A stretch of DNA of 64,000 nucleotides, taken from NCBI GenBank assembly GCA_046757165.1, contig JBHHXT010000006.1, positions 780-64,779 on the forward strand, read 5' to 3'. The notes under the pieces are model-generated. The model searched no databases and was not told the DNA's origin. It saw only the letters and a program-made list of their open reading frames with translations. Each line of letters begins with the position of its first letter. The stretch's first letter is position 1. The translations under genes and the position numbers were made by a program. The DNA comes from a bacterium. GTDB lineage: Bacteria > Zhuqueibacterota > Zhuqueibacteria > Oceanimicrobiales > Oceanimicrobiaceae. Below, piece by piece: positions 48,447 through 64,000 of the stretch.

Positions 48447-49235
48447 ATGCCAGAGAGTTTAGTGGACTACCGTGTGGAAGACGGTATCGCCATCCTGGAG
48501 CTGAACAACCCGCCGGCGAACAGTTATAATCACGAAATGATGGCTGCGTTGGACGCCTGTGTTTTGAAGGCGAGGTTTGATGCGTCTGTGCACCTGTTGA
48601 TCATCACGGGAAAAGGAGAGAAGTTCTTTTCCGGTGGCGCGGACATCAACATGTTACAGTCCAACGGTCCAGAATATCTCTACAATTTCGGCCTGCACGG
48701 CAATGAAACCTTGATGCGGATCGAAAACACGCCAAAACTCGTCATCGCTGCGATCAATGGCCACGCCATGGGCGGCGGGTGTGAAATCAGTCTGGCATGT
48801 GATCTGCGCGTTGCTAAGGCCGGCAAGAGCAAGATCGGGTTGCCCGAAGTCAACCTGGGCGTGCTGCCCGGGATGGGCGGTACGCAACGGCTGCCGCGCT
48901 TGATCGGCCAGGCCAGGGCGATAGAGCTGATGGCCTCGGGGGCCGCGCTTTCCGTGGACCAGGCGCTCGAGATAGGCCTGGTCAATCATGTTTTTGAAGA
49001 GGACGGGCACTGGGAAAAAGTCATGGACTATGCGCGCAATTTCGTGCCACCTAAGAAAGCGAGCCTTTCGCTTGGCTTGATCAAACGCGCCGTCAAGTCC
49101 GGGGCGGAGATGTCGCTGCCGGACGGCCTGGCACTCGAACGGGAGCTTTTGCAGCGGGGATTCGAGAGCGAAGACGCGCAGGAAGGGCTAAAGGCGTATC
49201 TTGAAAAAAGGGCGGCTAAGTTCAAAGGCAAATAA
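48447..49235 (+). CDS. Enoyl-CoA hydratase/isomerase (crotonase) family protein.
   Basis: It has the crotonase fold with oxyanion-hole motifs FFSGGADI and AAINGHAMGGGCEI. Confidence 0.8.
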   Translation: MPESLVDYRVEDGIAILELNNPPANSYNHEMMAALDACVLKARFDASVHLLIITGKGEKFFSGGADINMLQSNGPEYLYNFGLHGNETLMRIENTPKLVIAAINGHAMGGGCEISLACDLRVAKAGKSKIGLPEVNLGVLPGMGGTQRLPRLIGQARAIELMASGAALSVDQALEIGLVNHVFEEDGHWEKVMDYARNFVPPKKASLSLGLIKRAVKSGAEMSLPDGLALERELLQRGFESEDAQEGLKAYLEKRAAKFKGK

Positions 49236-49273: not shown

Positions 49274-50734
49274 ATGGCTCAGATGTTTCTAAATGGGGAA
49301 TGGGTAAACGCCAGCAGTGGCAAAACAGTTGAAATAGGAAATCCCGTCGACGGGTCGGTGGTGGACACCGTGCCGTCCAGCGACGCTGAGGACGCCACTG
49401 CCGCCGTCGAGTCTGCCAGGGCGGCCTTCAAAGAATGGGCCGGGACGGCGCCTGATGTGCGGGCGGAGATTTTGCACAGAGGCGTCGCTCTCGTCAAAGC
49501 GCAGGTGAAAGATCTGGCCGCACTGCTGACGCAAGAGCAAGGCAAGCCCTTCATGGAGTCGATGGGAGAGTTGAATCATTTCTTGCACGGCATGGAATTC
49601 TACCTCGGCCTGGCAAGCAAGGTCAGGGGCAAGCAAGTCCCTCTGCCGCCTTCGATGAATCCCAACTGTTATGGGGTGATCATGAGGCAGCCTGTGGGAA
49701 TCTGCGTCGGCATCGTCCCCTGGAACTTCCCGATCACGCTCATGGGCACCAAAGTCGGGCCTGCGCTTGTCGCCGGCTGCCCGATCATTATCAAACCGGC
49801 TTCCACCACACCTTTGACCACGCTGAAAATCATTGGTTTGCTCAACGAGGCCGGCCTCCCGGCCGGTGTGCTCAATTGTGTCACCGGCCGCGGCAGCAAG
49901 GTTGGTTCGGCTTTGATTGCGCATCCGGAGGTGCGACGAGTGGCGCTGACCGGCAGCTCCGCAACCGGCCGGCAAGTGATGCAGGTCGCTGGCCCGGATT
50001 TCAAGCGCATCACCCTGGAGCTGGGGGGCTCTGACCCGATGATCGTTTGCCCGGATGCCGACCTTGCCAAAGCGGTGAGCGGGGCCATGATCGGCCGCTA
50101 CTGGAACGCGGGCCAGGCCTGTTTGGCGGTCAAGCGGCTCTATTTGTTCGAGGAGATCTACGACGAATTTCTGGATAAACTGGTCGCAAAGGTGGGCCGC
50201 TATGAAGTGGGAGATGGCCGGGTGAAAGCGGAGAAGCCCCGCATCCGGATGGGCCCCCTGCACACGGCGTTTCAGCGCGAGGAAGTCGAAGACCAGCTCA
50301 AAGATGCTGTCGACAAGGGCGCTGAAGTTCTGGTTGGAGGCAAACGACCGCAAGACGACGGGTTGAGCAAAGGTCATTTCTTCGAGCCAGCCGTGGTCAC
50401 CAACGTGTCAGAAGAGAGCAAACTGGTGACCGAGGAGGTGTTCGGCCCGGTGCTCCCGGTCTTCAAGGTCTCTTCGCTGGATGAAGCGATTGCCAAAGCA
50501 AACGACAGCAAGTGGGGCCTCGGTGCTTCAATCTGGACGAATAATATGAAGTACGCCAATCAAGCCGCGCGTGAGATTCAGTCTGGCATGGTCTGGGTGA
50601 ACCAATTGCATTTTGGCTACGACGAGATGCCTTTCGGCGGTGTGAAAGCATCGGGGATCGGGCATGAGCACGGGCCGGAAGCACTGGATACCTATTTTGA
50701 ACCCAAAAGCGTTGTCTTTGGAGGTCTGGACTAA
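49274..50734 (+). CDS. NAD(P)-dependent aldehyde dehydrogenase.
   Basis: It carries the catalytic Glu motif LELGGSDP and the catalytic Cys in NAGQACLA, with VPWNFP near the N-terminus. Total length is 486 aa. Confidence 0.85.
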   Translation: MAQMFLNGEWVNASSGKTVEIGNPVDGSVVDTVPSSDAEDATAAVESARAAFKEWAGTAPDVRAEILHRGVALVKAQVKDLAALLTQEQGKPFMESMGELNHFLHGMEFYLGLASKVRGKQVPLPPSMNPNCYGVIMRQPVGICVGIVPWNFPITLMGTKVGPALVAGCPIIIKPASTTPLTTLKIIGLLNEAGLPAGVLNCVTGRGSKVGSALIAHPEVRRVALTGSSATGRQVMQVAGPDFKRITLELGGSDPMIVCPDADLAKAVSGAMIGRYWNAGQACLAVKRLYLFEEIYDEFLDKLVAKVGRYEVGDGRVKAEKPRIRMGPLHTAFQREEVEDQLKDAVDKGAEVLVGGKRPQDDGLSKGHFFEPAVVTNVSEESKLVTEEVFGPVLPVFKVSSLDEAIAKANDSKWGLGASIWTNNMKYANQAAREIQSGMVWVNQLHFGYDEMPFGGVKASGIGHEHGPEALDTYFEPKSVVFGGLD

Positions 50735-50912: not shown

Positions 50913-50932
50913 ATTCCCGCTTTCGCGGGAAT
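50913..50932. promoter_or_regulatory. Perfect 8-4-8 palindrome ATTCCCGC-tttc-GCGGGAAT upstream of the second aldehyde dehydrogenase.
   Basis: The hairpin or operator lies 50 nt before the ATG at 50985, with no U-tract after it. Confidence 0.35.
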
Positions 50933-50984
50933 GACCGACAAACTGGACTTTTATAACAACCGAACTGGGAAGAACAAATCATAC

Positions 50985-52421
50985 ATGGCTAAGATGTTCA
51001 TAGCAGGCGAGCAGGTGGACGCCCGCTCAGGCGAAACCACCACGATTTACAACCCGGCGAATGGCGAGGCCGTGGGCACGGCACCGAAGGGAAACCGGGA
51101 AGATGCGAAGATAGCCATCGAGGCGGCAGCCGGGGCGTTCAACTCCTGGTCGACAACTCCTTTTTCACAGCGGGGTGAAATTCTGTTCAACACCTCCCGG
51201 ATGGTGCGCGAGCACGAAAACGACCTGGCGGTCCTGTTGACCGAGGAGCAGGGCAAACCCCTGCGCGAATCCGTTAGAGAGATTCGCCGCTTTGCCCATA
51301 CCCTCGACCACTACGCCGGATTGGCGAAGAATATCCGTGGCGGGTATGTGCCCCTGCTGGATGCCAATCGCTTTGGCATGATCATCAAGCGTCCTCTGGG
51401 CGTTTGTGGGGCGATTGTGCCGTGGAATTTTCCGGTTTCGTTGATGGGCAACAAGATCGCGCCCGGTCTTTTAACAGGAAACACATTTGTGGTCAAACCG
51501 GCAAGCACAACGCCTCTGACGGCCACGAAAGTTGTTGAGTTGATGTTTCGGGCCGGACTGCCAACCGGGGTGCTCAACATCGTGACGGGTCCCGGAGGCA
51601 CGGTCGGGCAGGAAATCATCGAGAATTCCAAAGTGCGCAAAATCGGATTCACCGGTGCGACGGACACGGGTCGCAAGGTCATGGCAAGCGCGGCCACTGA
51701 ACTCAAACGCGTGACGCTCGAGCTGGGCGGGAGCGATCCGATGATCGTTTGCGATGACGCCAATCTCGACAAGGCGGTCAGTGCTGCTTCGGTGGGCCGG
51801 TTCTTCAATTGTGGCCAGGCCTGCCTCGCGGTCAAACGGCTCTATCTCTTTGAGCAAATCGCGGACGAGTTTATTGACAAGCTCGTTGCGAAAGTGAAGA
51901 AACTGCGGCTCGGCGACGGCCTGGCGGAGGGCACCATGATCGGACCGATGCACACAAAGGGACAACAGGCAGAGGTCGAAGCACAGGTGCAAGACGCACT
52001 CGACAAAGGGGCCAGGATTCTGGCCGGCGGCAAGCGCCCTGAAGGAGCGGAATACGCAACGGGCAACTATTATCTGCCAACCTTGTTGACCGACATCGAT
52101 GAATCCTCCAGAATCATTACCGAGGAGGTCTTCGGACCCGCCCTGCCCATCATGCGGGTGAGCTCGCTCGAGGAAGCGATCGAAAAGGCCAACGACCATA
52201 TTTATGGCCTCGGATCTTCTGTGTGGACGCGCGACCTGGATCGCGCCAACGAAGCGGCCTATCGCATCGACGCCGGTTACACCTGGATAAACTCAGCGCA
52301 GATTATCTTTGACGAAATGCCGTTCGGCGGCTTCAAGCAGAGCGGTTTGGGCAAGGAGCACGGGTCGGAGGCATTGGACTACTACATGGAAACCAAATCA
52401 GTCGTCTTTGCAAAGAATTAG
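50985..52421 (+). CDS. Second aldehyde dehydrogenase paralog.
   Basis: It contains LELGGSDP and CGQACLA. I prefer the ATG at 50985 (MAKMFIAGEQ) by alignment to the upstream paralog (MAQMFLNGEW). Confidence 0.85.
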   Translation: MAKMFIAGEQVDARSGETTTIYNPANGEAVGTAPKGNREDAKIAIEAAAGAFNSWSTTPFSQRGEILFNTSRMVREHENDLAVLLTEEQGKPLRESVREIRRFAHTLDHYAGLAKNIRGGYVPLLDANRFGMIIKRPLGVCGAIVPWNFPVSLMGNKIAPGLLTGNTFVVKPASTTPLTATKVVELMFRAGLPTGVLNIVTGPGGTVGQEIIENSKVRKIGFTGATDTGRKVMASAATELKRVTLELGGSDPMIVCDDANLDKAVSAASVGRFFNCGQACLAVKRLYLFEQIADEFIDKLVAKVKKLRLGDGLAEGTMIGPMHTKGQQAEVEAQVQDALDKGARILAGGKRPEGAEYATGNYYLPTLLTDIDESSRIITEEVFGPALPIMRVSSLEEAIEKANDHIYGLGSSVWTRDLDRANEAAYRIDAGYTWINSAQIIFDEMPFGGFKQSGLGKEHGSEALDYYMETKSVVFAKN

Positions 52422-52426
52422 CGCCC

Positions 52427-53218
52427 ATGAGCACGACGTATCAGGCGGTCACCTTCGAGCTGAGCGACAACGGCATCGCCACAATCACGCTCAACCGTCC
52501 CGATAAGCTCAACGCCATGAACAATGCCATGCGCAGCGATTTCAGGGTGCTGCGCGACGAGCTTGCTTCCAACAAGCACATCAAAGTTGTCATTTTCACC
52601 GGCGCCGGGCGCGCGTTTTCAGCCGGCGGCGATATCGACTTTCTCGACCGCGACTGGCTGACCCAGGACTTCCGCGAAGAGACGCAAGACTTCACCGGCT
52701 TTTTCGATTCGCTCGAGAGGCTGGAAAAGCCGGTTCTGGCGGCCATCAACGGCCCGTGTACTGGAGCGGGGTTGCAGATTACGCTTTCCTGTGACATCCG
52801 CATCGCGTCAGAGCGCGCAACGTTTGGCTTCCGGGAGAATCTCATCGGACTCATCCCGGGCGCGGGTGGCTGCTCGAGATTGGTCAAACTGATCGGCTAC
52901 GGCAAAGCGAAAGAATTGATTTTTACCGGTGAGATGATCTCTGCCGAAGAGGCCAAATCCATCGGCATGGTCAACCGGGTCGTGCCGCATGAGCAGTTGT
53001 TGGATGAGACTCGCACTCTGGCCGAGCACCTCCTGACCCGGGCACCCGTTGCCCTGGGTTTGGTCAAACGAATCCTGTGGAGCTGCGTCAGCGTTGACAT
53101 GGCCAGCGGCCGGACCCTGGAGAGCCTGGCGCAGAGCATTCTGATCAAAACCGAAGACCATAAGGAAGGCATTCGGGCCTTTCGCGAAAAGAGACATCCA
53201 GAGTTCAAGGGCAAATGA
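52427..53218 (+). CDS. Enoyl-CoA hydratase/isomerase family protein (second crotonase).
   Basis: It contains FSAGGDI and AAINGPCTGAGLQI, and begins 6 nt after the aldehyde dehydrogenase stop. Confidence 0.8.
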   Translation: MSTTYQAVTFELSDNGIATITLNRPDKLNAMNNAMRSDFRVLRDELASNKHIKVVIFTGAGRAFSAGGDIDFLDRDWLTQDFREETQDFTGFFDSLERLEKPVLAAINGPCTGAGLQITLSCDIRIASERATFGFRENLIGLIPGAGGCSRLVKLIGYGKAKELIFTGEMISAEEAKSIGMVNRVVPHEQLLDETRTLAEHLLTRAPVALGLVKRILWSCVSVDMASGRTLESLAQSILIKTEDHKEGIRAFREKRHPEFKGK

Positions 53219-53233
53219 GAGAATAACAAACAC

Positions 53234-54427
53234 ATGCATCGTCAAAATCAGCAGGTTTTTATCGGCGCCCCGGTTCGCACACCGATTGGCAAGTTTGGCG
53301 GTGGACTGAGCTCGCTGACCAGTCCTGAGCTGGGGGCGGTTTCTGCAACGGCAACCATCAACAGGGCCGGCATCGACCCGGACCAGATCGATGAAGTTAT
53401 CATTGGAATAGCGCGCTTGGCGGGGGTCGGTCCGAACCCCGCACGGCAGATCGCTTTCAAAGCAGGGTGCCCGGAGACCGTGCCCGCCTACTCGATCAAC
53501 ATGGCATGCGGCTCCGGGTTGAAGTCCATTATTAGCGGATTCCAAACCGTTGCCCTCGGCGACGCCAACCTCATCCTGGCGGGTGGCTCCGAGAGTTTGA
53601 GCAATGCGCCATACCTCTTGATGCAAGGCCGATGGGGCTATCGCTTGGGACACAGCCAGGTGGTTGATTCGATGTACCGGGATGGCTATCTGTGCCCGCT
53701 TTGCGACGAGATTATGGGGGAGACGGCTGAAAATCTGGCTGAGAAATACGGGATTCCCCGGACGGAATCCGATCAATACGCGCTGCTGTCTCAAAAGCGG
53801 TGCCGCATCGCACAAGAGAACGGGCGGTTTGCAGACGAAATTGTCCCGGTCGAGGTCCCCCTCAAGAAGGGGGCAGTGAAGGTGATAGACACCGATGAGC
53901 ACCCGCGGCCGGAAACGACGCTGGAAGGCCTTGCCAGGCTCGAGCCAGTGTTCAAGGAGGGCGGCACCGTCCATGCCGGCAACGCTTCCGGAATCACCGA
54001 CGGCGCCGCAACCGTGCTCGTGTTTTCCGAGCAGAAGCGCGACGAGCTCAATCTCAATCCAGTGGTCAGAATTGTCGACACCACCATTGCCGGTGTGGAC
54101 CCTTCTCTGATGGGAATCGGGCCGGTGCCGGCCGTCAAGAACCTGTTGCAGCGTAACAATTTGCACCTCAGCGATATCGACTTGATCGAGCTGAATGAAG
54201 CATTTGCGGTGCAGGTGCTTGCCTGCCACAAAGAACTGGATTTTGATATGGATAAAGTCAATGTCAACGGGGGCGCCATCGCGCTCGGACATCCAACGGG
54301 GTGCACGGGAACACGGATAACGGTCACTTTGCTGCATGAGATGGTCAAACGCGATGCAACCCTCGGGCTCGCGACGCTGTGCGTCAGTGGCGGCATGGGC
54401 GTGGCTTTGCTGGTGGAGAGAGTCTGA
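53234..54427 (+). CDS. Acetyl-CoA C-acyltransferase (thiolase II).
   Basis: It contains NMACGSGLKS with the active Cys, NVNGGAIALGHPTGCTG and CVSGGMG. Confidence 0.85.
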   Translation: MHRQNQQVFIGAPVRTPIGKFGGGLSSLTSPELGAVSATATINRAGIDPDQIDEVIIGIARLAGVGPNPARQIAFKAGCPETVPAYSINMACGSGLKSIISGFQTVALGDANLILAGGSESLSNAPYLLMQGRWGYRLGHSQVVDSMYRDGYLCPLCDEIMGETAENLAEKYGIPRTESDQYALLSQKRCRIAQENGRFADEIVPVEVPLKKGAVKVIDTDEHPRPETTLEGLARLEPVFKEGGTVHAGNASGITDGAATVLVFSEQKRDELNLNPVVRIVDTTIAGVDPSLMGIGPVPAVKNLLQRNNLHLSDIDLIELNEAFAVQVLACHKELDFDMDKVNVNGGAIALGHPTGCTGTRITVTLLHEMVKRDATLGLATLCVSGGMGVALLVERV

Positions 54428-54729
54428 TGGCCAGAGTTCCGAAAGAATATCACAAGTTTTTCTGGGAAGTGAAGGCAGAGATGCTGGACACGGAGGAGTA
54501 TCCTGAGTATATCATCGAACGGATTCTGGAGCACGGGACGCTGGAATCGGTGAAGTGGCTACGCAGTACCATCGGGGATGAGAGGATAAGGTCGTTTGTC
54601 AAGACTCGAGGAGACCGAAGCCTGTCGTCCATGACTTTTAACTTTTGGCAATTAATCCTTAAGCTGAGTCCAGAGGAATGTACACGAATGTCCTCAACAA
54701 GACGCAAATACTCATTCTGGAAGTATTGA
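54427..54729 (+). CDS. Small protein (100 aa); probable antitoxin partner of the downstream AbiEii-family nucleotidyltransferase.
   Basis: Its ATG overlaps the thiolase stop (TGATG), and its 3' end overlaps the start of the next ORF by 51 nt. I recognise no catalytic motif. Confidence 0.4.
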   Translation: MARVPKEYHKFFWEVKAEMLDTEEYPEYIIERILEHGTLESVKWLRSTIGDERIRSFVKTRGDRSLSSMTFNFWQLILKLSPEECTRMSSTRRKYSFWKY

Positions 54730-55298
54730 GCCAACTGCCTCTGATCAGGAATTTCTATCTTGCAGGCGGCACTGCACTTGCACTGCACTACGGCCATCGT
54801 GAATCAGTCGACTTTGACTTCTTTTCAGAAAAGCCTTTCTCCCCAGATGAGATATTAGGCGAGCTAAAGAAGAACAAGATCGAGCTTCAGTTCAAGAACG
54901 CGAATACGCTGGGCATCTTGTTTCAAGGTGTCACATGTACTTTTTTTCTTTACAAGTATCCTCTTCTCGGCAGATTCCACACGGTGTTTGAACACGTGCA
55001 GGTCGTAGGCGTATCCGATATCGCTGCAATGAAGGTTGCGGCAATCGCCGGACGAGGGAAAAAAAGAGATTTTATTGATCTGTATTTTGTTTGCCAAAAA
55101 GACTACTCGTTGAGAGAAGCCGTGGAATTGTATCAGAAAAAATACGAGGTATTGAATCACGATTTATATCACGTTTACAAAGGACTTGCGTATTTCTCGG
55201 ACGCGGAGCTAGACTCCATGCCTAAGATGTTTGACAGCGTGGAGTGGAGCCTGGTCAAGAGTTTCTTTGAAAAACAAGTTAGTCAACTTATGGAGTAG
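54678..55298 (+). CDS. Nucleotidyltransferase AbiEii/AbiGii toxin-family protein (DUF1814-like).
   Basis: 206 aa with the FYLAGGTALALHYGHRESVDFDFF motif, which matches the GGTAL...R.S.D.DF signature of AbiEii-type type IV TA toxins. Confidence 0.6.
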   Translation: MYTNVLNKTQILILEVLSQLPLIRNFYLAGGTALALHYGHRESVDFDFFSEKPFSPDEILGELKKNKIELQFKNANTLGILFQGVTCTFFLYKYPLLGRFHTVFEHVQVVGVSDIAAMKVAAIAGRGKKRDFIDLYFVCQKDYSLREAVELYQKKYEVLNHDLYHVYKGLAYFSDAELDSMPKMFDSVEWSLVKSFFEKQVSQLME

Positions 55299-55341
55299 AA
55301 CACACAAGGCTCAAGCCGGACAAGCCGGAACCAACAAAGAT

Positions 55342-55473
55342 TAAGAGCGCACGCGAAGGCGCAGAGCCGCAAAGAATAGGCAAAGGATTCTCTTTGCGAA
55401 CCCTTTGCGCCTTCGCGTCTTTGCGTGAAATCTTTGGTTTTAGGATTCAGTTTTCATTTTTTGCCAAAAGATG
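55342..55473. mobile_element. MITE-like insertion (about 130 bp) with terminal inverted repeats, carrying an internal CGCGAAGG/CTTTGCG palindrome and splitting the conserved TA-flank sequence.
   Basis: The terminal inverted repeats ccaacaaagatt (55342-55353) and aatctttggtt (55440-55450) match at 10 of 11 positions. The internal inverted arms are cacgcgaaggcgcagagccgcaaag and ctttgcgccttcgcgtctttgcgtg. The two halves of the conserved sequence are contiguous at locus 24589-24642 but separated here. Confidence 0.55.
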
Positions 55474-55516
55474 ACAGAACGTGACTTGTCAGATACTAAA
55501 ATTAAGGACATGAACC

Positions 55517-56665
55517 ATGATCGATTTCAGTCTAAGCGATGAGCAAAAGCAACTGCGCGACCTGGCCAGAGAGTTCACCGAGAAGGAGATCAAGCCCGTG
55601 GCCGCCGAATATGACAAAAAAGCGGAGTTCCCGACCGAAGTGCTGCGCAAAGCCTGGGAGCTTGGTTTGATGAACGTACAGATTCCCGAGAAATTCGGCG
55701 GACCGGGATTGGGCGTGCTGGAGGACTGCCTGATCGCCGAGGAGCTGGGCGCCGGCTGCACAGGCATTGGGACTTCCATGATGTCAAATATGCTGGCGCA
55801 GGGGCCGTTGCTGGTTGCCGGCACCGACGAACAGAACAAGAAATATCTCGGTCAGATGGTCGATGAGTTTGCCTTTTGCGCCTATGCCGTGACCGAGCCG
55901 GGTGCGGGTTCCGATGTCGCGGGCATCAAAACGACGGCCAGGAAAGTAGGCAATGACTACGTCGTCAATGGCCAGAAGATGTGGATCACCAACGCGGCGC
56001 AAGCAAAGTGGTTTTTCGTCCTGACCTACACCGACCCGGCGGCGAGTTACAAAGGCATGACGGCATTCGTCATTCCGGCTGATCTACCGGGTGTGGCGGT
56101 TGGCAAGCACGAGGAAAAGATGGGACAACGCGCCTCGGACACGCGCGCCGTGACGTTCGAAGACGTGAAACTGCCGGCCGAAAACCGGCTCGGCGCCGAG
56201 GGGGATGGCTGGAGAATCGCGATGCACGCTTTCGACCACTCCCGTCCGATCGTGGCGGCGGCGGCTGTGGGGTTGGCGCGTGGCGCCATGGAGCATTCGA
56301 TCCAGTATGCGGGGGAGCGCACGACCTTTGGGGTCCAGATTGCCAAGCATCAGGCCGTGAGCTTTATGATTGCCGACATGGCCATGAACGTCGAAGCAGC
56401 CCGGCATCTGGTTTGGAAGTCCGCCTGGAAGACAGACCGGGGCGAACGCAACACGCTTGAAGCGGCCTACGCCAAAGCCTTCGCCGCTGACATGGCCATG
56501 AAAGTCGCCACCGACGCCGTGCAAGTGTACGGAGGCTATGGCTATTCTGCGGAATATCCGGTCGAAAAGATGATGCGGGATGCGAAGATTTTTCAAATCT
56601 ACGAAGGCACCAGCCAGGTTCAGCGCTTGATCATTGCCCGCGAGCTGTTCAGCCGGAAATCATGA
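55517..56665 (+). CDS. Acyl-CoA dehydrogenase (short/medium-chain type).
   Basis: 382 aa with YAVTEPGAGSDVAG, MWITN and QVYGGYGYSAEYPVEKMMRDAKIFQIYEGTSQVQ motifs. An AAGGA ribosome-binding site precedes it. Confidence 0.85.
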   Translation: MIDFSLSDEQKQLRDLAREFTEKEIKPVAAEYDKKAEFPTEVLRKAWELGLMNVQIPEKFGGPGLGVLEDCLIAEELGAGCTGIGTSMMSNMLAQGPLLVAGTDEQNKKYLGQMVDEFAFCAYAVTEPGAGSDVAGIKTTARKVGNDYVVNGQKMWITNAAQAKWFFVLTYTDPAASYKGMTAFVIPADLPGVAVGKHEEKMGQRASDTRAVTFEDVKLPAENRLGAEGDGWRIAMHAFDHSRPIVAAAAVGLARGAMEHSIQYAGERTTFGVQIAKHQAVSFMIADMAMNVEAARHLVWKSAWKTDRGERNTLEAAYAKAFAADMAMKVATDAVQVYGGYGYSAEYPVEKMMRDAKIFQIYEGTSQVQRLIIARELFSRKS

Positions 56666-57156
56666 CCACCGGAAATCGAACGATGAACAAAACCCTCGTG
56701 ACCTTGAAAGTCAATGGTTCAGACTGCGAAACGGCGATTCGGGAGTACGACGTTCTCCTGGACGTGCTCCGTGAGAATTTGAACCTGACGGGCACCAAGC
56801 GGGGATGTGACATGGGCACGTGCGGCTGTTGTGCGGTTCTGATCGATGGACGCCCGAAACTTTCCTGTTTGACTCTGGCGATGGAGTGTGTTGGCAGGGA
56901 GGTCACGACCATCGAGGGCTTGAAATCACCTCTCTTGCATCCTTTGCAAAGAACATTCGCTGAGGCTGGCGGTTCGCAATGTGGCTTTTGTACCGCTGGA
57001 TTCATTATCACGGCCAGGGCGCTGCTCCATGAAACTCACCATCCGTCACGCAGTGAAATTGAAGAGGCAATTTCCGGCAACATGTGCCGGTGCACCGGCT
57101 ACATCAAGATCGTCGATGCCATTGAGATGGCCGCCAGCGAACTGAATGGACCGTAA
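56662..57156 (+). CDS. hcrC: (2Fe-2S)-binding small subunit of a molybdenum-hydroxylase-family enzyme, proposed 4-hydroxybenzoyl-CoA reductase gamma-like.
   Basis: It has the plant-type ferredoxin motif CDMGTCGCC and the second cluster motif CGFCTAGF...CRCTGY. Its 164 aa are close to HcrC size, and the start may be 56683. Confidence 0.5.
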   Translation: MTTGNRTMNKTLVTLKVNGSDCETAIREYDVLLDVLRENLNLTGTKRGCDMGTCGCCAVLIDGRPKLSCLTLAMECVGREVTTIEGLKSPLLHPLQRTFAEAGGSQCGFCTAGFIITARALLHETHHPSRSEIEEAISGNMCRCTGYIKIVDAIEMAASELNGP

Positions 57157-57271
57157 AGAATCGGGTCGTGTTTGCACAGTTTTCGAGTTTCGAGTTTAGG
57201 ATTTCGAATTTCCGGCTCATGTAATACAACGTCACCAAATTGTTGACAAAACCAGGAATCAAAACAAGAGC

Positions 57272-59647
57272 ATGATTATGAAGGGAGCAAGGGCCTCTCA
57301 TCAGGTCGTTGGCAAGCGATACCCGCTTGTTGATGCCCTCAAGAAAACCTCGGGCGAGGGAGTTTACACAGATGATATCAAACTGCCGGGCATGCTGGTC
57401 GGCAAGATCCTGCGCAGCCCGGTGTCGTACGCGCGTATCAAGCGTATCGATGTTTCGAAAGCGGAAAGCCTGGCGGGCGTTCATGCCGTGATCACGGGTG
57501 CTGAACCTGGCGCACTCAACAGATTCGGGGTCCTGCCAATTTCCAAAGATGAAATCAGTTTGCCGCAGCCCGGGGCCTCCGGACGTGACGGCAAAGTCTT
57601 GTATGTCGGTGACTGCGTCGCTGCCGTCGCTGCCGATAATGAGGAAACCGCCCTGGCCGCCTTGCGCCTCATCGAGGTCGAATATGAAGCGCTCCCTCCG
57701 GTTCATCGCCTCGAGAATGGACTGAAAAAGACGGATGAACCGATTCAGGACGAGACCCTGGACGGGACCAATATTCACAAGTCTGTCGAGCAGCATTTTG
57801 GCGACGTCGAAGCGGCGCTGAAGCGCTCCACCCACGTGCTCACACGGGATTTCGCATTTGTCGGCGTCACGCACGCCTTCACGGAACCGATCGCAGCGAT
57901 CGCCCATTTTGATGCTGACGAACGGTTGACCGTGTGGTCGGCGCAGCAGGTGCCGCATTACCTTCACCGCGCTTTGACTGAGGTGATGGAAATGGACATG
58001 CACCGCATCCGGGTCCTTCGACCCATGGTCGGCGGCGGCTTCGGAGGAAAAAGCGACCCCTTTCCGCACGAGATGATCGCCTCGTTGCTGTCGAGGAAGT
58101 GTCGCCGGCCGGTCAAGATTTTGTTCGACCGCGAGGAAGTCTTTTACAACAATCATGGCCGACATCCGACCCGGACGCATCTGACCGTTGCCACGGATGA
58201 TAAAGGCATGCTGACTGCCATCGACCTGGACGCCACGATTGACGGCGGGGCCTGGGGCAGTTTTGGCGTCGTGACGACTTATTACAACGGCGTTCTCTCC
58301 ATGGGACCATACAAGATCCCAAACTTCCGCTACGCGGGTCGACGCGTTTACACCAACAAGGCGCCGTGCGGTGCCATGCGAGGGCATGGCGCGGTCAACT
58401 CTCGGTTTGCGTTCGAGGTGCTCTTGGACCAGCTCGCCGAAGACAACAAGATGGACCCTTGTGAATTTCGCCTGGTCAACCTGCTGCCGGAAAACACCGA
58501 GACCCTCAATGGCTTTCGCATCACCAGCAATGGCACGCGCGAATGTATTGAGCGCGCGCGTGAGCAGTCGGAGTGGGACCGTAAGCACGGCAAATTGTCT
58601 CATGGCGAAGGCATTGGAGTGGCGTGCGGCTTCTACATCAGTGGCAGCGCGCACAGAATTCATTTCAACGAGCTGCCGCATTCGACGGTCCACCTGAAGA
58701 TAGATATGGACGGCGGCATCACGGTGCACTGTCTGGCGGCGGAAATCGGGCAGGGCAGTGATACCATGCTGGCGCAGTGTGTCGCAGAGCCCCTGGGGGT
58801 CAAGCTGGAGCGAATTCGTGTCTTCTCGGGGGATTCGGACACCGATCCCATTGATTTGGGCTCCTACTCCAGTCGTGTCACTTTCATGGCCGGCAATGCT
58901 GCCCTGGAGGCTGCCAACAAAATTCAGCAGAAAATTACGCAAGCAGCCGCGCGCAAGACGGGCTACCCGGCACAGGGGTTTGTGCTCAAAGATGAGCAGG
59001 TGATTTATGCTCCGGATCCTCAGATCCGGCTGACCTTCGATGATGCGCTGACTGAGGCGCTGGCAAAGAACGGCGCTTTGATTGCCAAAGGAATCTACCA
59101 GTCGCCGCCGCCCATCGGCAAGCGCGGTGAATTCAAAGGGTGGCGGGCCGGGCTTTCTCCGACCTATAGTTTTCAGGCATACATTGCGCAAGTCATGGTT
59201 GACCCGGAGACCTTCGAGGTCAGAGTGCAAAAGGTGTGGGCCGCACATGACTGTGGCAAAGCGCTCAACCCGCTCGCCGTCGAAGGCCAGATCGAAGGGT
59301 GCATCCACATGGGCCTCGGGCAGGTGCTGTGCGAGGAAATGCCCTACTTGAAGGGCACCATCCAGGGCCCGAATTTTCTGGACTACCGCACCCTGACGCC
59401 CATGCAGATGCCCGAAGTCGATGTGATCATCGTCGAGAGTCATGACCCGGAAGGCCCGTTTGGCGCAAAAGAAGCGGGAGAGGGGCCGCTTTTGCCCATC
59501 CTTCCCGCGGTGGCGAATGCCATTTATGATGCTGTCGGAATCCGCATCTATTCTCTGCCGATCACGCCAGACAAGCTCTGGAAGGAGGCGCAGCGTCAAG
59601 AGCGCGCTGTCACTCGTGTGAAAGTGCCGACGGCGGTCACGGCATGA
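57272..59647 (+). CDS. hcrA: Molybdopterin-binding large subunit of the xanthine dehydrogenase/aldehyde oxidase family, proposed 4-hydroxybenzoyl-CoA reductase alpha-like.
   Basis: 791 aa with Ald_Xan_dh N-terminal hammerhead and MoCo-binding domains (GGGFGGK, AAHDCGKALNP, EGPFGAKEAGEGP). The reverse-strand ORF 57104..59725 is a shadow. Confidence 0.5.
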   Translation: MIMKGARASHQVVGKRYPLVDALKKTSGEGVYTDDIKLPGMLVGKILRSPVSYARIKRIDVSKAESLAGVHAVITGAEPGALNRFGVLPISKDEISLPQPGASGRDGKVLYVGDCVAAVAADNEETALAALRLIEVEYEALPPVHRLENGLKKTDEPIQDETLDGTNIHKSVEQHFGDVEAALKRSTHVLTRDFAFVGVTHAFTEPIAAIAHFDADERLTVWSAQQVPHYLHRALTEVMEMDMHRIRVLRPMVGGGFGGKSDPFPHEMIASLLSRKCRRPVKILFDREEVFYNNHGRHPTRTHLTVATDDKGMLTAIDLDATIDGGAWGSFGVVTTYYNGVLSMGPYKIPNFRYAGRRVYTNKAPCGAMRGHGAVNSRFAFEVLLDQLAEDNKMDPCEFRLVNLLPENTETLNGFRITSNGTRECIERAREQSEWDRKHGKLSHGEGIGVACGFYISGSAHRIHFNELPHSTVHLKIDMDGGITVHCLAAEIGQGSDTMLAQCVAEPLGVKLERIRVFSGDSDTDPIDLGSYSSRVTFMAGNAALEAANKIQQKITQAAARKTGYPAQGFVLKDEQVIYAPDPQIRLTFDDALTEALAKNGALIAKGIYQSPPPIGKRGEFKGWRAGLSPTYSFQAYIAQVMVDPETFEVRVQKVWAAHDCGKALNPLAVEGQIEGCIHMGLGQVLCEEMPYLKGTIQGPNFLDYRTLTPMQMPEVDVIIVESHDPEGPFGAKEAGEGPLLPILPAVANAIYDAVGIRIYSLPITPDKLWKEAQRQERAVTRVKVPTAVTA

Positions 59648-59653
59648 TCTGTG

Positions 59654-59866
59654 TTCAGCCTGTAGAGACTGTGTGAAAATGTAAGGCAAGCATCTTGCTT
59701 GCCAGAATGGTTTGCACGAGAACAAGAATGTAGCTTAAATCATAAACCTCTTTTAATTAACAAGCCAGAGGCATGTTTTACCATGTTTTCTCACAGTCTC
59801 TTCAGGCTGAAAGTCAAATGTAGCGCAGTCTTCCAGACTGCAGGCAGAATGCCTGCGCTACTTTAC
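59654..59866. repeat. Highly structured intra-operon spacer: a 26-bp inverted repeat pair enclosing nested hairpins.
   Basis: ttcagcctgtagagactgtgtgaaaa (59654-59679) pairs with ttttctcacagtctcttcaggctgaaa (59786-59812) with 2 mismatches. The inner palindrome is ggcaagca-tc-ttgcttgcc (59684-59702). A downstream hairpin gtagcgcag...ctgcgctac (59822-59862) encloses gcaggca-gaa-tgcctgc. Confidence 0.6.
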
Positions 59867-59887
59867 AAAATATCGTGAGGGAGTTCT

Positions 59888-60925
59888 ATGAAATGCTTAA
59901 TGAATGTTCTTTTACTTTCCGGGCTTATCGCTGGCAGCGTTTGGACGGATGCTCCTGGCCAAACCCCATCACAAAAGATGACAGTCCGCCGGCCCGTTCA
60001 CACCTACTCCATTGTGGCTCGCGACCCTGAGACCGGTGAGCTCGGGGTGGCGGTGCAATCCCACTGGTTCTCAGTCGGGTCTCTCGTCACCTGGGCAGAA
60101 GCGGGCGTGGGGGCTGTGGCAACTCAGTCTCTGATCGATGTCACGTACGGCCCACTGGGACTTCAGTTGATGAAAGCAGGACGCACAGCCAACCAGGCGC
60201 TGGAAGCCCTGAAAGTCGCTGATGAACATCCCGAAATCCGGCAGGTTGCCATGATTGATGCGAAAGGGAATGTGGCGGCACACACGGGTGAGAAATGCAT
60301 TCCGGATGCAGGCCATCTCGTCGGAGAGAACTTTTCGGTGCAAGCAAATTTGATGCTGAACAAAGAAATCTGGCCTGCGATGAAGAGCGCCTATGAAGGC
60401 ACCGAAGGCGACCTGGCCGACAGGATGCTGGCGGCCCTGGAAGCCGCGCAAAACGCGGGTGGCGACATCCGCGGCAGGCAATCTGCGGCAATCTTGATCG
60501 TGAAAGGTGAGGCGACCGGCAGGCCCTGGGAAGATACGGTGATGGAGCTGCGAATCGAAGACCATGCCACACCGATTCAGGAGCTCAGGCGGCTGGTCAA
60601 GCTGCACCGCGCCTATCAGCACATGAACAACGGTGACCTTGCCCTCGAGGCTAATGATGTGGAAGGCGCCCTGCGCGAGTATGGCGCCGCTGAGGCGTTG
60701 TTCCCGGACAATCTTGAAATGAAATTCTGGCACGCGGTTTCTCTGGTGAATGCAGAGCGAGTCGATGAATCTTTGCCGCTCTTCAAGACCATCTTTAGCA
60801 AAGACAAAAACTGGGCAACTCTGGTTCCCAGATTGCCAGGCGTCGATATTCTTCCGAATGAGGAGGCCGTAATCACCAAAATACTGTCGGTAACTCAGGA
60901 TAACATCAAACGAACCGAGAAGTGA
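59888..60925 (+). CDS. Secreted DUF1028-family protein (Ntn-hydrolase-like fold) with C-terminal TPR-like repeat.
   Basis: It has a signal peptide (MKCLMNVLLLSGLIAGSVWT) and the N-terminal TYSIVARDPETGELGVAVQS block characteristic of DUF1028. The family assignment is from memory. Confidence 0.5.
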   Translation: MKCLMNVLLLSGLIAGSVWTDAPGQTPSQKMTVRRPVHTYSIVARDPETGELGVAVQSHWFSVGSLVTWAEAGVGAVATQSLIDVTYGPLGLQLMKAGRTANQALEALKVADEHPEIRQVAMIDAKGNVAAHTGEKCIPDAGHLVGENFSVQANLMLNKEIWPAMKSAYEGTEGDLADRMLAALEAAQNAGGDIRGRQSAAILIVKGEATGRPWEDTVMELRIEDHATPIQELRRLVKLHRAYQHMNNGDLALEANDVEGALREYGAAEALFPDNLEMKFWHAVSLVNAERVDESLPLFKTIFSKDKNWATLVPRLPGVDILPNEEAVITKILSVTQDNIKRTEK

Positions 60926-60929
60926 ACAC

Positions 60930-61913
60930 ATGATCCTGCCGCCGTTCAAATATCACCGTCCTGCGACAATTGATGAGGCCATCGACGTTGCGAGAACCTG
61001 CAAGGGCGATTTCGACTTTGTGGCCGGCGGCACGGATGTGCTGCCAAATTACAAGAATCGGTTGAACAGTCGAGATAATGTCATCAGCCTTTCTGGCATT
61101 AAGGAATTACATCAAATCTCGGAGAGCAAGATCGGCGCGATGGTCACGCTGGTAGCGCTGGAAAAGAATAACCGGCTCAGAAAGGTTTATCCGTCGATTT
61201 CCGAGGCAGCTCATCTCGTGGCCACGCCCCTTCTGCGTGAATCCGCGACCGTTGGCGGTAACATTCTTTTGGACACACGCTGCTGGTTTTTCAACCAGTC
61301 CTATCTCTGGCGCCAGTCCAAAGGTTTTTGCCTGAAGGCGGACGGGGACGTCTGTCTGGTCGTGCCGCAGAATGAGGTGTGCTACGCGACCTATTCCGGC
61401 GACATGGCGCCTGTCCTCATGGTTTTGAATGCAACCTTCCATCTCGCCGGTCCTGAGGGCGTGCGCGAGATCCATTCCAGCAAGTTTTTCACCCATGATG
61501 GCATCACGCGCAATGTGAAGCTCCCCGAGGAGATCCTGACCCACATCTCAATACCGGACGAATCAAAGTCGTTGCGGTCAGCCTACCGCAAGCTTCGCAT
61601 TCGTGACGCCATGGACTACCCGGTCATGGGCACGGCAGTGGCGTTGAGTTTGAACCAGAATACCATCGAAACGCTTAGAATCGCGCTCACGGGGACCGGC
61701 ACGACGCCTTTCCTCTATGATGAAATCACCCGACCGTTTTCCGGCGATCAGTTGACCGACGAGCTCATCGAGCAGATCAGTAACGAAGTCATGAACGAGG
61801 TCCAGCCTTACCGCAACGTGCATTTTTCGCCGCAATACCGCAAAGCCATGGTGGGCGTGTACTTGCAGCGGATTCTGACTGAGCTCGCAGATTCCACAAA
61901 CTCCAGCCACTAA
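60930..61913 (+). CDS. hcrB: FAD-binding medium subunit of the molybdenum-hydroxylase family carrying a four-cysteine insertion, proposed 4-hydroxybenzoyl-CoA reductase beta-like.
   Basis: It has the FAD_binding_5 fold (FDFVAGGTDVLP). The inserted loop DTRCWFFNQSYLWRQSKGFCLKADGDVCLVVPQNEVCYA places cysteines at 118, 134, 142 and 151. The spacing of 16, 8 and 9 residues is, as I recall, the same as the [4Fe-4S]-ligating Cys122/138/146/155 of Thauera HcrB. Total length is 327 aa, against HcrB at about 324. Confidence 0.55.
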   Translation: MILPPFKYHRPATIDEAIDVARTCKGDFDFVAGGTDVLPNYKNRLNSRDNVISLSGIKELHQISESKIGAMVTLVALEKNNRLRKVYPSISEAAHLVATPLLRESATVGGNILLDTRCWFFNQSYLWRQSKGFCLKADGDVCLVVPQNEVCYATYSGDMAPVLMVLNATFHLAGPEGVREIHSSKFFTHDGITRNVKLPEEILTHISIPDESKSLRSAYRKLRIRDAMDYPVMGTAVALSLNQNTIETLRIALTGTGTTPFLYDEITRPFSGDQLTDELIEQISNEVMNEVQPYRNVHFSPQYRKAMVGVYLQRILTELADSTNSSH

Positions 61914-61952
61914 GCCTGAGTACAGGTTTTCATAGATTCGATGACATATCGC

Positions 61953-62032
61953 CTCACGCAAAGCCGCAGAGTCCGCAGAGAAAGGAAGGTCAAAAACAAA
62001 CAAACTCCGCGCGCTCGGCGTCTTTGCGTGAG
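61953..62032. repeat. Palindromic REP-like element of the CTTTGCG family after hcrB.
   Basis: ctcacgcaaag (61953-61963) and ctttgcgtgag (62022-62032) are exact reverse complements. The inner arms cgcagagtccgcagag / ccgcgcgctcggcg resemble the elements at 55356-55438 and 14749-14879. Confidence 0.6.
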
Positions 62033-62160
62033 ATTGAATACGTGATCGTATTTACGAATTCCTGTACTAAGTTATTGATATCCCAGCACAAGAGGGGAAA
62101 GGGATGTCGATCCATCGTCTCGGCAGGTGAAATGGAGCGCATTTGACGGAGAAACCGGTC

Positions 62161-64000
62161 ATGCTCAAAAAGCTTACCTATTTTTCTATAGACCACCCCA
62201 AAATGGTGATCATCCTCACGCTGATTCTGACGGGCTTGTTTCTATTTCAACTCCCCAGGGCCCATATCGACACCGACCCGGAAAACATGCTGGAAGTGCG
62301 TCAACCCGACCGGGTTTTCTATGACCAAATCAAAAATGAGTTCGGCATTCGAGACCTCATCGTTTTGGGCATTCGTGATGACAGTGGTATCTTTCGAATC
62401 GAGACACTGGAAAAGATTGCCCGTATGACTGATGAAATCTTGAAAATAGAAGGGGTCATCGTCGAAGACGTCATAAGCTTCACGACCACAGACAATGTAA
62501 CTTCCGGGGGTGGGCTACTGCAGGTGCGCCGGATCATGGAGAGGGTGCCTCAGTCAAACGAGGAGCTTGACGCCATCAAAGCAGGCATCTATGATAACCC
62601 GCTTTTTGTGGAGAAAATCGTCTCGAAACAAGGGGACGCCGTAGCCCTTTATATCCCTATTCAGCAAAAGGACATGAGCTACCGCATTTCAAAAGCGATT
62701 GAGTCCATCGTGCAGGAGCAGTTGAGTGAAGGGCAAGATTACTACATTGCCGGTTTGCCGGTGGCGGAGGATACGTTCGGCTTCGAGATGTTCATGCAGA
62801 TGGGCATCCTGGCGCCGCTGATCGGCCTGGTGATCTTTGTCCTGATGTTCCTGTTGTTTCGGAAACTTTCTCTCGTCGTTTCGCCGATGATTGTTGCCAT
62901 GTTCAGCGTGGCCTGGGGTATGGGAGCGTTGATTGGCCTCGGCTTTACGGTGCACATTATGAGCTCCATGATTCCCATCTTCCTCATGCCCATCGCGGTG
63001 CTCGATTCGGTGCACATTTTGAGTGAATTTTACGACCGCTATCCAACGCTACGTGACCGGAAGCAAACGCTCATGGCGGTTACCGACGAACTTTTTGCCC
63101 CCATGTTTTATACTTCGATTACCACGGCTGTTGGATTTGCATCTCTGGCTCTGGCCGATATTCCACCCGTGCGGGTGTTCGGCGCTTTTGTGGCCTTTGG
63201 CGTGATGGCGGCCTGGCTGCTGACCGTGACCTTTGTCCCGGCATCCATCATGCTGATTGGCGAAGAAAAACTTTCGGCCAAGGTTGCCAAAAAAGAAGCA
63301 AAACCGTCCATCCTGGCTACGTTTCTACCCGCGGTCGGACGTTTTGCTTTCGCTCAGAGTCGAGCTGTTGTGTTCGCCGCTGGACTCCTTTTGGCTATTG
63401 GCATCTGGGGTCTCACCAAAATCGTGGTCAATGATAACCCGGTAAATTGGTTCAACAAAGATCACAGAATCCGCGTCGCTGACCGCGTGATGAATCAGCG
63501 CTTCGGCGGCACGTATATGGCGTATTTGTCCGTCGAGGGCCGGCAGCCAGGTGATATGAAACGGCCTGAAGTGATGAGCTACATCAGTGAGCTGCAAGCG
63601 TATCTGGAGCAGAAGGAGGTGGTGGGCAAAACCTCCTCAGTCGTGGATGTCGTGAAACGGATAGGCCAGGTACTCAAAAACGATGGCGAGGCGGCAAGCA
63701 CGATTCCGGTAAGTCAGGAAGAAATCGCCCAGTATTTATTTCTATTTCTGATGTCCGGTGACCCCAACGACCTCGACAACTTCGTGGATTACGATTACCA
63801 GAAGGCGAATATCTGGGTGCAGATGAAACGCGGCGACAACCGGGACATGGAACGAGTGGAGCGGTCGGTTGAGCAATTCATCGGCAAGAACGATCCGCCC
63901 GCAGACATCGAAATCCGCTGGTCCGGTCTTACCCACATCAACAAGGTCTGGCAGGACTTGATGGTCAAAGGCATGCTGAAGGCGGTGCTAGGGGGTTTTG
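62161..64000 (+). CDS. MMPL/RND-superfamily exporter (HpnN-like), N-terminal about 613 aa; continues beyond the window end.
   Basis: My manual translation from the ATG at 62161 is stop-free to 64000. It shows TM1, a large periplasmic loop, a TM cluster (FMQMGILAPLIGLVIFVLMFLLF...VAMFSVAWGMGAL), and a second loop. It is not in the ORF table because no stop falls in the window, and table ORF 62127..62324 is in another frame. Confidence 0.65.
   Translation, partial: MLKKLTYFSIDHPKMVIILTLILTGLFLFQLPRAHIDTDPENMLEVRQPDRVFYDQIKNEFGIRDLIVLGIRDDSGIFRIETLEKIARMTDEILKIEGVIVEDVISFTTTDNVTSGGGLLQVRRIMERVPQSNEELDAIKAGIYDNPLFVEKIVSKQGDAVALYIPIQQKDMSYRISKAIESIVQEQLSEGQDYYIAGLPVAEDTFGFEMFMQMGILAPLIGLVIFVLMFLLFRKLSLVVSPMIVAMFSVAWGMGALIGLGFTVHIMSSMIPIFLMPIAVLDSVHILSEFYDRYPTLRDRKQTLMAVTDELFAPMFYTSITTAVGFASLALADIPPVRVFGAFVAFGVMAAWLLTVTFVPASIMLIGEEKLSAKVAKKEAKPSILATFLPAVGRFAFAQSRAVVFAAGLLLAIGIWGLTKIVVNDNPVNWFNKDHRIRVADRVMNQRFGGTYMAYLSVEGRQPGDMKRPEVMSYISELQAYLEQKEVVGKTSSVVDVVKRIGQVLKNDGEAASTIPVSQEEIAQYLFLFLMSGDPNDLDNFVDYDYQKANIWVQMKRGDNRDMERVERSVEQFIGKNDPPADIEIRWSGLTHINKVWQDLMVKGMLKAVLGGF

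Follow-up and report, generated by a model that had tools for sequence, protein, structure and literature searches.

Introduction

Which reaction is served by a molybdenum enzyme that carries the hallmark loop of one well-known reductase, but resembles that reductase only from a distance? We met this question in a 64,000-nucleotide (nt) stretch of contig JBHHXT010000006.1 (GenBank assembly GCA_046757165.1, positions 780 to 64,779 of the forward strand), hereafter called the window, from a bacterium of the Zhuqueibacterota (Oceanimicrobiaceae). The window encodes a three-subunit enzyme that belongs to the xanthine oxidase family, with a gene of the DUF1028 family lodged between the genes for the large subunit and the flavin adenine dinucleotide (FAD) subunit. 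The original prediction, made from the sequence alone, had proposed a 4-hydroxybenzoyl-coenzyme A (CoA) reductase (4-HBCR, HcrCAB) operating in an anaerobic aromatic-CoA pathway. HcrCAB is, to our knowledge, the only biochemically understood xanthine-oxidase-family member whose electron chain is run backwards, and hcrCAB genes serve as metagenome markers of anaerobic phenolic degradation.

Here, we argue that the enzyme is of the HcrCAB type but belongs to a sister clade, that it is likely a ferredoxin-driven reductase, and that the DUF1028 protein is a separate matter. We put the probability of this reading at roughly 0.6. The enzyme type as such is already known. New are a well-separated sister clade of wide distribution in which the HcrB loop is retained and, in one subclade, an operon variant with an embedded gene for a DUF1028 protein that is predicted to be exported.

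Subunits and the Cysteine Loop

The small, large, DUF1028, and FAD-subunit genes are all co-oriented on the plus strand, and their coordinates and lengths are exactly those given originally. The small subunit (56662–57156, 164 aa; Pfam Fer2_2 and Fer2) has eight cysteines in two [2Fe-2S] motifs (Cys 49/54/57/69 and 107/110/142/144). Its closest Protein Data Bank (PDB) matches are nearly equal, namely the Methylobacillus aldehyde oxidase (5Y6Q_A, 158 bits) and Thauera HcrC (1RM6_C, 156 bits), and its N-terminus shows neither a Tat nor a Sec signal and no twin-arginine motif. The large molybdopterin subunit (57272–59647, 791 aa; Pfam Ald_Xan_dh_C, MoCoBD_1, and MoCoBD_2) matches HcrA (1RM6_A) at 4.9e-187 and shares with it the Gln of the QVP motif and the Glu of the GAKE.GEG motif, which, going by the motifs of bovine xanthine dehydrogenase (XDH), we take to be residues of the Mo site. 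The FAD subunit (60930–61913, 327 aa; Pfam FAD_binding_5 and CO_deh_flav_C) completes the set. The xanthine-oxidase-family Pfam domains of all three subunits pass their gathering scores, the subunit sizes are comparable to those of HcrC/A/B (161/769/324 aa in the PDB), as had been predicted, and the order small–large–FAD is that of hcrCAB.

The feature that most clearly ties this enzyme to HcrCAB is a loop in the FAD subunit, for which the original prediction had claimed an HcrB-type insertion with four cysteines. This claim holds well beyond chance. The best PDB match of the FAD subunit in a phmmer search is HcrB itself (1RM6_B, E = 6.9e-57), and residues 100–202 align without a gap onto HcrB 104–206, placing C118/134/142/151 on C122/138/146/155 with loop spacings of 16, 8, and 9 residues. 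An 81-aa loop region taken by itself still recovers HcrB, again gapless, at 8.9e-25, whereas its matches to the flavoproteins PaoB (5.9e-5) and 5Y6Q (4.4e-4) are weak, contain indels, and have other cysteine spacings. CO-dehydrogenase flavoproteins align to the FAD subunit as two blocks with a break at query 112/158, and the insertion is thus about 40 aa long (61266–61400, plus strand; Cys codons at 61281, 61329, 61353, and 61380). An alignment of 81 FAD subunits, taken from Thauera, the window, and 79 loci related to it, shows the loop cysteines invariant in all 81, and the only other cysteine of the subunit, Cys24, varies freely, which provides an internal control. On the model of Thauera HcrB, the loop is predicted to hold a [4Fe-4S] cluster.

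The match to Thauera HcrCAB (1RM6/1SB3) thus extends over three size-matched subunits, their gene order, the gapless insertion with its four identically spaced cysteines, and the lack of export signals. A family to which the same loop might point is that of the periplasmic oxidoreductase PaoABC of Escherichia coli (5G5G/5G5H) and the Methylobacillus aldehyde oxidase (5Y6Q), which are likewise heterotrimeric and have a Cys-rich loop at the same site of the FAD subunit. We rejected a PaoABC-type enzyme, as the large subunit reaches only 299 on the PaoC model NF041671 (cutoff 1180), and the small subunit lacks both a Tat motif and the N-terminal extension of about 50 aa found in PaoA.

A Sister Clade of 4-Hydroxybenzoyl-CoA Reductase

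Is the enzyme then a genuine, if divergent, 4-HBCR that feeds benzoyl-CoA to an anaerobic aromatic pathway whose genes lie in another part of the genome? We consider this unlikely, though it deserves to be taken seriously. The large subunit scores 627 bits against HcrA, its next best PDB matches (CoxL and quinoline oxidoreductase) reach at most 277, and xanthine dehydrogenases about 138 bits or less, so that its nearest relative is HcrA and not a xanthine, nicotinate, or CO dehydrogenase. Two of the outcomes named originally as refuting a 4-HBCR, a loop that fails to align and a large subunit of another family, are thus not observed. With HcrA and HcrB as the best solved matches, the Hcr equivalog models as the top NCBIfam matches for all three subunits, and the same cysteine spacing and gene order, the case for a true 4-HBCR is a respectable one, and the Joint Genome Institute (JGI) indeed names members of the clade 4-HBCR subunits.

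Yet none of the three subunits reaches the cutoff of its model. The small subunit scores 171.6 on TIGR03193 (cutoff 257.8), the large subunit 834.7 on TIGR03194 (994.55), and the FAD subunit 299.6 on TIGR03195 (404.55). Three canonical large subunits, used as controls on TIGR03194, score 1289–1342 bits, about 300 above the cutoff, whereas five further members of the query clade stay below it at 799–886 bits. The identity to the Thauera proteins is 43% for the large subunit (HcrA) and 37% for the FAD subunit (HcrB). This is not a mere matter of taxonomic distance, since canonical HcrA sequences from Proteobacteria and Actinomycetota remain no less than 75% identical: the 120 database clusters closest to Thauera HcrA are all at least 75% identical to it and include Actinomycetota and Solirubrobacterales.

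The same separation is seen when the large subunits are compared with each other. In an alignment of 74 sequences, identities are at least 51% within the query clade and at least 72% among canonical enzymes, but 40–46% across the two. In a neighbor-joining tree rooted on a PaoC-like outgroup, the query clade, the canonical clade, and a subclade associated with β-oxidation genes (see below) each receive a bootstrap of 100/100, and the query falls outside the clade holding the Thauera enzyme, in a sister clade. Between the two, 57 positions are fixed differently and 160 are invariant in both. Some of the fixed differences flank the GGGFG motif; the canonical segments GGGFG-ARTE, HRGRP, and SHFVSGT are replaced in the query clade by GGGFG-GKSD, NHGRH, and GFYISGS, respectively. 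We take these segments to correspond to the substrate-contacting regions around Glu802 and Phe1009/Thr1010 of bovine XDH, which would put the changes beside the Mo site.

Canonical HcrA is, moreover, only one of many related families. A search covering 1.84 billion representatives returned, at the 50% clustering level, at least 10 HcrA-like families that are about 40–49% identical to the query, with canonical HcrA represented by P0373 (61% identical to Thauera, 41% to the query). As an aside, four HcrA-like families (P0363, P0364, P0367, and P0368; 934–951 aa, 44–50% identical to the query) are extended at the N-terminus by about 160 aa, which presumably represent a fused 2Fe-2S subunit.

Judged by its sequence, then, the enzyme belongs to a separate sister clade of the bona fide 4-HBCR, and the clade's substrate probably differs from the canonical one. 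The original assignment to 4-HBCR in an anaerobic aromatic pathway is not supported, given the scores below cutoff, the 43% and 37% identities, the separate clade, and the generic gene neighborhood described in the next section.

Distribution and Gene Neighborhood

We searched for relatives in one genome per GTDB species, which gave 244 confirmed loci; the best 80 of these were analyzed, and the statements on distribution, gene order, and DUF1028 in this and the following sections refer to them. The nearest relatives are metagenome-assembled genomes (MAGs) of candidate division KSB1 and Calditrichaceae, and the hosts of the query clade are here uncultured KSB1/Calditrichota-like bacteria, unlike Thauera. 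The clade as a whole is far more widespread, with members in KSB1/Calditrichota, Planctomycetota, Acidobacteriota (Polarisedimenticolia), Eisenbacteria, Wallbacteria, Gemmatimonadota, Cloacimonadota, Myxococcales, and many Thermoplasmata archaea. The order small–large–FAD is found in every locus in which small- and large-subunit genes were detected. This spread speaks against a divergent 4-HBCR, as we know of no benzoyl-CoA pathway established in Thermoplasmata, Planctomycetota, or Gemmatimonadota.

Only in the nearest subclade, whose FAD subunits are at least 66% identical and which has 100% bootstrap support, do genes of acyl-CoA metabolism accompany the enzyme. Upstream, this subclade has aldehyde dehydrogenases, a crotonase, a thiolase, and an acyl-CoA dehydrogenase; downstream, a reductase of the medium-chain dehydrogenase/reductase (MDR) type and a 3-hydroxyacyl-CoA dehydrogenase. 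In the window, the cluster opens with a crotonase-family enoyl-CoA hydratase (48447–49235, plus strand, as are all genes of the cluster; Pfam ECH_1, 1.3e-54), whose NCBIfam matches are generic enoyl-CoA hydratases, each under its cutoff, with no Dch or Oah model among the best 25 of 73 matched families. Two aldehyde dehydrogenases follow, at 49274–50734 (Pfam Aldedh, 1e-158; 79% identical to the orthologue in locus L018) and at 50931–52421 (3e-165; orthologues at 74–78% in L003, L008, and L018). Next comes a thiolase (acetyl-CoA C-acyltransferase, 53234–54427), which passes the general model TIGR01930 (460.8, cutoff 240.55) and is conserved ahead of the enzyme genes in L003, L004, L008, L012, and L018. 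A short-chain-type acyl-CoA dehydrogenase (55517–56665; Pfam Acyl-CoA_dh N, M, and 1) directly precedes the enzyme; its top NCBIfam matches, AcrC and cyclohexane-1-carbonyl-CoA dehydrogenase, are both under cutoff, its orthologues in relatives are 81–84% identical, and its stop codon overlaps the start of the small-subunit gene by 4 bp (ATGA). The downstream genes of the relatives are no more specific: the MDR gene reaches 100 bits on the Had model (cutoff 338), and the 3-hydroxyacyl-CoA dehydrogenase, like the thiolase, passes general models only.

The original prediction had taken the neighboring crotonases, thiolase, acyl-CoA dehydrogenases, and a gcdH gene to be consistent with an aromatic-CoA pathway. 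By their model scores, however, the crotonase, thiolase, and acyl-CoA dehydrogenases are generic β-oxidation genes, and the supposed gcdH at 31128–32294 is a generic acyl-CoA dehydrogenase whose best NCBIfam matches lie far under cutoff. Throughout the 64-kb window, no gene matched a model for benzoyl-CoA reductase/Bam, Dch/Had/Oah, or an aromatic CoA ligase. Clustering of neighboring open reading frames (ORFs) across the wider clade, judged by eye apart from Pfam matches in three loci, gave XdhC-like (cluster 8), MocA/MobA-like (cluster 12), and Glu/Leu/Phe/Val-dehydrogenase (cluster 10) groups but no aromatic-pathway genes. The Pfam match ELFV_dehydrog in L005 agrees with cluster 10; two further clusters (4 and 7) were discarded as gene families, being antisense-ORF artefacts of high-GC DNA.

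The lack of aromatic genes near the locus is nonetheless weak evidence against a divergent 4-HBCR, because a canonical hcrCAB locus, that of Sedimenticola (L090), lacks them too and has only XdhC, MocA-like, and NifU-like genes as neighbors. Alcohol- and aldehyde-dehydrogenase neighbors could, in principle, oxidize 4-hydroxybenzyl alcohol or aldehyde. A literature search gave no link between KSB1 and 4-hydroxybenzoyl-CoA.

Downstream of the FAD-subunit gene, the window departs from its relatives: a hairpin-rich gap of 257 bp (61914–62170) takes the place of the MDR and 3-hydroxyacyl-CoA dehydrogenase genes and is followed by a gene for an HAE3/MMPL-type transporter of the resistance-nodulation-division (RND) superfamily (62170–64000), which runs past the end of the window.

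Probable Chemistry of the Enzyme

We infer the direction of electron flow and the class of substrate by analogy with the Thauera enzyme (1RM6). Low-potential electrons would pass from ferredoxin to the [4Fe-4S] cluster and onward via FAD and the two [2Fe-2S] clusters to Mo. Since the cluster in Thauera is the entry point of low-potential electrons, the most likely chemistry would be the ferredoxin-driven reduction of a substrate with an aromatic or heteroaromatic ring, for example its dehydroxylation. In the KSB1/Calditrichota subclade, the enzyme shares its operon with generic β-oxidation enzymes and aldehyde dehydrogenases. There, the substrate or product is probably a CoA thioester, because an acyl-CoA dehydrogenase is translationally coupled to the small subunit and a thiolase, a hydratase, and a hydroxyacyl-CoA dehydrogenase accompany it.

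That reductive dehydroxylation in this family is not limited to 4-hydroxybenzoyl-CoA is illustrated by UcdCFO of Enterocloster (PMC11760930), a xanthine-oxidase-family enzyme that performs the reductive phenol dehydroxylation of urolithin C; it reportedly has no HcrB-type [4Fe-4S] loop, and it acts on a substrate other than a CoA ester.

The electrons could also run the other way. The enzyme would then be an oxidative hydroxylase or dehydrogenase, acting on a heteroaromatic acyl-CoA (similar to furoyl-CoA dehydrogenase) or on an aldehyde, with the [4Fe-4S] cluster as the electron exit, as in PaoABC. The Cys loops of PaoB and the 5Y6Q flavoprotein at the same position fit such a reading, as do the slight edge of 5Y6Q over HcrC as a match of the small subunit, the two aldehyde dehydrogenases and the acyl-CoA dehydrogenase in the operon, and the fact that many of the clade's host phyla include aerobes. 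Against it, the large subunit scores only 218 bits with PaoC and 197 with 5Y6Q_C, compared with 627 for HcrA, alignment of the loop to PaoB and 5Y6Q needs indels and gives another cysteine spacing, and the small subunit lacks the Tat signal of PaoA (229 aa), with which its alignment begins only at PaoA residue 63. A literature search did not connect furoyl-CoA dehydrogenase with 4-HBCR. On balance, we regard oxidative chemistry as very improbable.

Several points weigh against the ferredoxin-driven reductase of a sister clade that we favor. All members of the clade are known from sequence alone. The canonical enzyme is the best-scoring characterized relative of the large and FAD subunits, so that the clade could still share its substrate, and the canonical Sedimenticola locus has no aromatic-pathway neighbors either. 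The loop by itself does not fix the direction of the electrons, since those of PaoB and 5Y6Q sit in oxidative enzymes; PaoABC works oxidatively. Finally, the tight spacing of the DUF1028 and FAD-subunit genes in 8 of 12 genomes, discussed below, would fit a functional link between the two.

The same proteins of the clade are called "4-hydroxybenzoyl-CoA reductase subunit beta" by JGI and "FAD binding domain-containing protein" by NCBI, a discrepancy that bears on metagenome surveys of anaerobic aromatic degradation. As a far larger, separate clade of many uncultured phyla and archaea conserves the diagnostic loop, down to the same cysteine spacing, "hcrABC" hits in MAGs call for caution. Biochemists may also find in the clade new targets for low-potential Mo chemistry.

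The Embedded DUF1028 Gene

The gene between the large and FAD subunits (59888–60925, plus strand; 345 aa) encodes a protein with a clear match to DUF1028 (PF06267, 247 bits, cutoff 26.2) and a weak one to TPR_16, and the start codon of the FAD-subunit gene lies 4 bp past its stop codon. Its presence in the operon sets the locus apart from Thauera hcrCAB, and the original prediction had singled out this arrangement as one not known from characterized clusters. The arrangement is real and recurs in relatives of one subclade: a DUF1028 gene lies between the large- and FAD-subunit genes in the window and in L003, L004, L006–L009, L011, L015, L017, L019, and L033. A further locus, L012, keeps a 198-aa DUF1028 remnant in a gap of about 1.9 kb between the two genes (8055–10004), with a stop codon that overlaps the FAD start; this ORF may be a decaying or truncated copy. 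Neither L018, the first lineage to branch off in the subclade, nor any other locus has the gene, a distribution most simply read as one insertion within one subclade with vertical retention afterward. The DUF1028 gene would then have entered the operon once, within the KSB1/Calditrichota subclade.

The protein is predicted to be exported. Its N-terminus, MK-LMNVLLLSGLIAGSVW-TDA, was judged by inspection and has a Kyte–Doolittle peak of 2.26, compared with at most 0.55 in the enzyme subunits. A Sec-type hydrophobic N-terminal segment is found in all DUF1028 orthologues whose N-terminus lies on the contig but in none of the three enzyme subunits. In the orthologues, the segment is followed by a short linker and then by the invariant stretch RPVHT[YF]S[IV]VARD. 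In agreement with this layout, an AlphaFold2 model (predicted local distance difference test score, pLDDT, of 85) shows a helix at residues 2–18, a disordered stretch at 20–36, a first strand that starts from Thr39, and a C-terminal TPR-like helical domain at 229–333. The invariant Thr39 (codon 60002–60004) is the predicted nucleophile of an N-terminal nucleophile (Ntn) core. A Foldseek search with the model returned 2IMH first, then proteasome β subunits and Anbu, which are Ntn hydrolases with a Thr nucleophile.

The structure 2IMH is SPO2555 of Ruegeria (Silicibacter) pomeroyi. It shares the Ntn core (6e-17 by sequence, 2e-14 by Foldseek; target-normalized TM-score 0.78–0.82), and its first-strand Thr aligns with that of the query. 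It differs in its identity of only 30%, in its length of 231 aa, and in having neither the signal peptide nor a TPR-like domain at its C-terminus. The DUF1028 family is abundant and very conserved, and a literature search on it returned nothing relevant.

Does this protein work together with the enzyme? It might, for example, be a periplasmic amidase or peptidase that releases an aromatic or heterocyclic acid for import, activation, and processing by the enzymes of the operon, a role compatible with each of the readings of the enzyme given above. The gene has been kept between the large- and FAD-subunit genes in 10 other species-level genomes (plus the truncated L012 copy), in which the FAD subunits are 66–77% identical. 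In 8 of the 12 genomes, its stop codon overlaps the FAD start or is at most 5 bp away from it, and an Ntn-hydrolase fold with an invariant Thr opening the first strand, as modelled, would suit a hydrolase. Against a link stands the apparently single insertion in one subclade, with L018 and the rest of the clade lacking the gene. Since the synteny of the whole neighborhood is conserved in that same subclade, inheritance alone explains the retention. Furthermore, orthologues that are 70–80% identical occur in unrelated contexts elsewhere (L086, L088, and L089), and the protein is predicted to be exported, whereas the enzyme is cytoplasmic. A functional coupling therefore seems quite unlikely to us.

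We instead read the DUF1028 protein as a putative exported Thr-Ntn-hydrolase-like protein with a function of its own, and not as a subunit or maturation factor; its independence is suggested by the orthologues in unrelated contexts. The insertion is probably not mechanistically important, but makes a tidy case of a foreign gene for an apparently exported protein that became fixed in the operon of a cytoplasmic multisubunit enzyme.

One locus, L087, could be mistaken for a recurrent Hcr–DUF1028 link, as a DUF1028 orthologue lies two genes downstream of a molybdenum-enzyme trio (1310–5133). With only 31% (large) and 28% (FAD) identity to the query, this trio is unrelated and PaoABC-like, and it is thus not evidence for such a link. 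Its FAD subunit has a Cys-rich insertion of its own (Cys 115/120/129/137/155), apparently of the PaoB type.

A bolder version of our reading would join all parts together. The clade would consist of widespread ferredoxin-driven Mo reductases acting on another substrate, with one subclade wired to a periplasmic Ntn-hydrolase and a β-oxidation module. If true, such reductases would be found in at least eight phylum-level bacterial groups plus Thermoplasmata, with a hydroxy- or amino-aroyl-CoA or a heterocyclic acyl-CoA as possible substrate; the Ntn-hydrolase would free the substrate from a conjugate, and the β-oxidation module would consume the product. KEGG-style hcrABC annotation would then overstate the anaerobic phenol-degrading potential in metagenomes. 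We think this combination rather improbable.

The Structured Spacer and Other Intergenic Elements

Between the large-subunit and DUF1028 genes lies a spacer of 240 bp (59648–59887, plus strand), which had been described as structured, and folding bears this out: its minimum free energy is −84.9 kcal/mol (z = −5.24), and none of 200 shuffled sequences was as stable. It contains an inverted repeat of 26 nt (92% complementary; arms 59654–59679 and 59786–59811, 106 nt apart) and a second palindrome at 59817–59864. A conserved riboswitch or regulatory RNA was considered and rejected, because the spacer matches no Rfam family (scan of 54000–64000, E ≤ 1, with only two sub-threshold microRNA-like hairpins elsewhere), shows no similarity in related loci, and sits at a position where the gap between the large-subunit gene and the next gene varies in relatives from an overlap to about 1400 bp. 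No second copy was found in the window. The spacer holds one sigma-70-like site, where 3.0 are expected by chance, and its terminator-like sites are not above those in shuffled sequences. It looks like either a lineage-specific palindromic insertion resembling a miniature inverted-repeat transposable element (MITE) or a local processing or terminator structure.

A second intergenic stretch, at 55299–55516, shares an 18-nt exact and a 32-nt 91% match with 24589–24642, just upstream of a nucleotidyltransferase gene at 24773, and is 75–77% similar to a palindromic stretch in the KSB1 locus L029 (8808–8905, in both orientations). The pair in the window may represent a small repeated intergenic element.

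Other Genes of the Window

Directly before this stretch, a DUF6922/AbiEii nucleotidyltransferase pair resembling a toxin–antitoxin system (54379–55298, plus strand; Pfam PF21956 and PF08843) is wedged between the thiolase and acyl-CoA dehydrogenase genes and is not part of the enzyme. At the same position, L003 has only a 74-aa DUF6922 gene and L004 has nothing. The other genes of the window are housekeeping genes, including SUF, Ccm, DXS, RNase Y, enzymes of the tricarboxylic acid (TCA) cycle, a FadE/FadA/FadB-type set, and acetate kinase. On the minus strand, a 1651-aa ORF (17431–22389) has an AMP-binding (acyl-CoA synthetase-like) domain at residues ~180–720 only, the other ~900 residues being without a Pfam match.

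Two further minus-strand ORFs, at 57104–59725 (873 aa) and 52808–54337 (509 aa), were dismissed as antisense shadows of the large-subunit and thiolase genes, respectively. Codon bias produces such long antisense ORFs as artefacts; a naive caller that picks the longest ORF was misled by them in this window as well as in related loci of high GC content.

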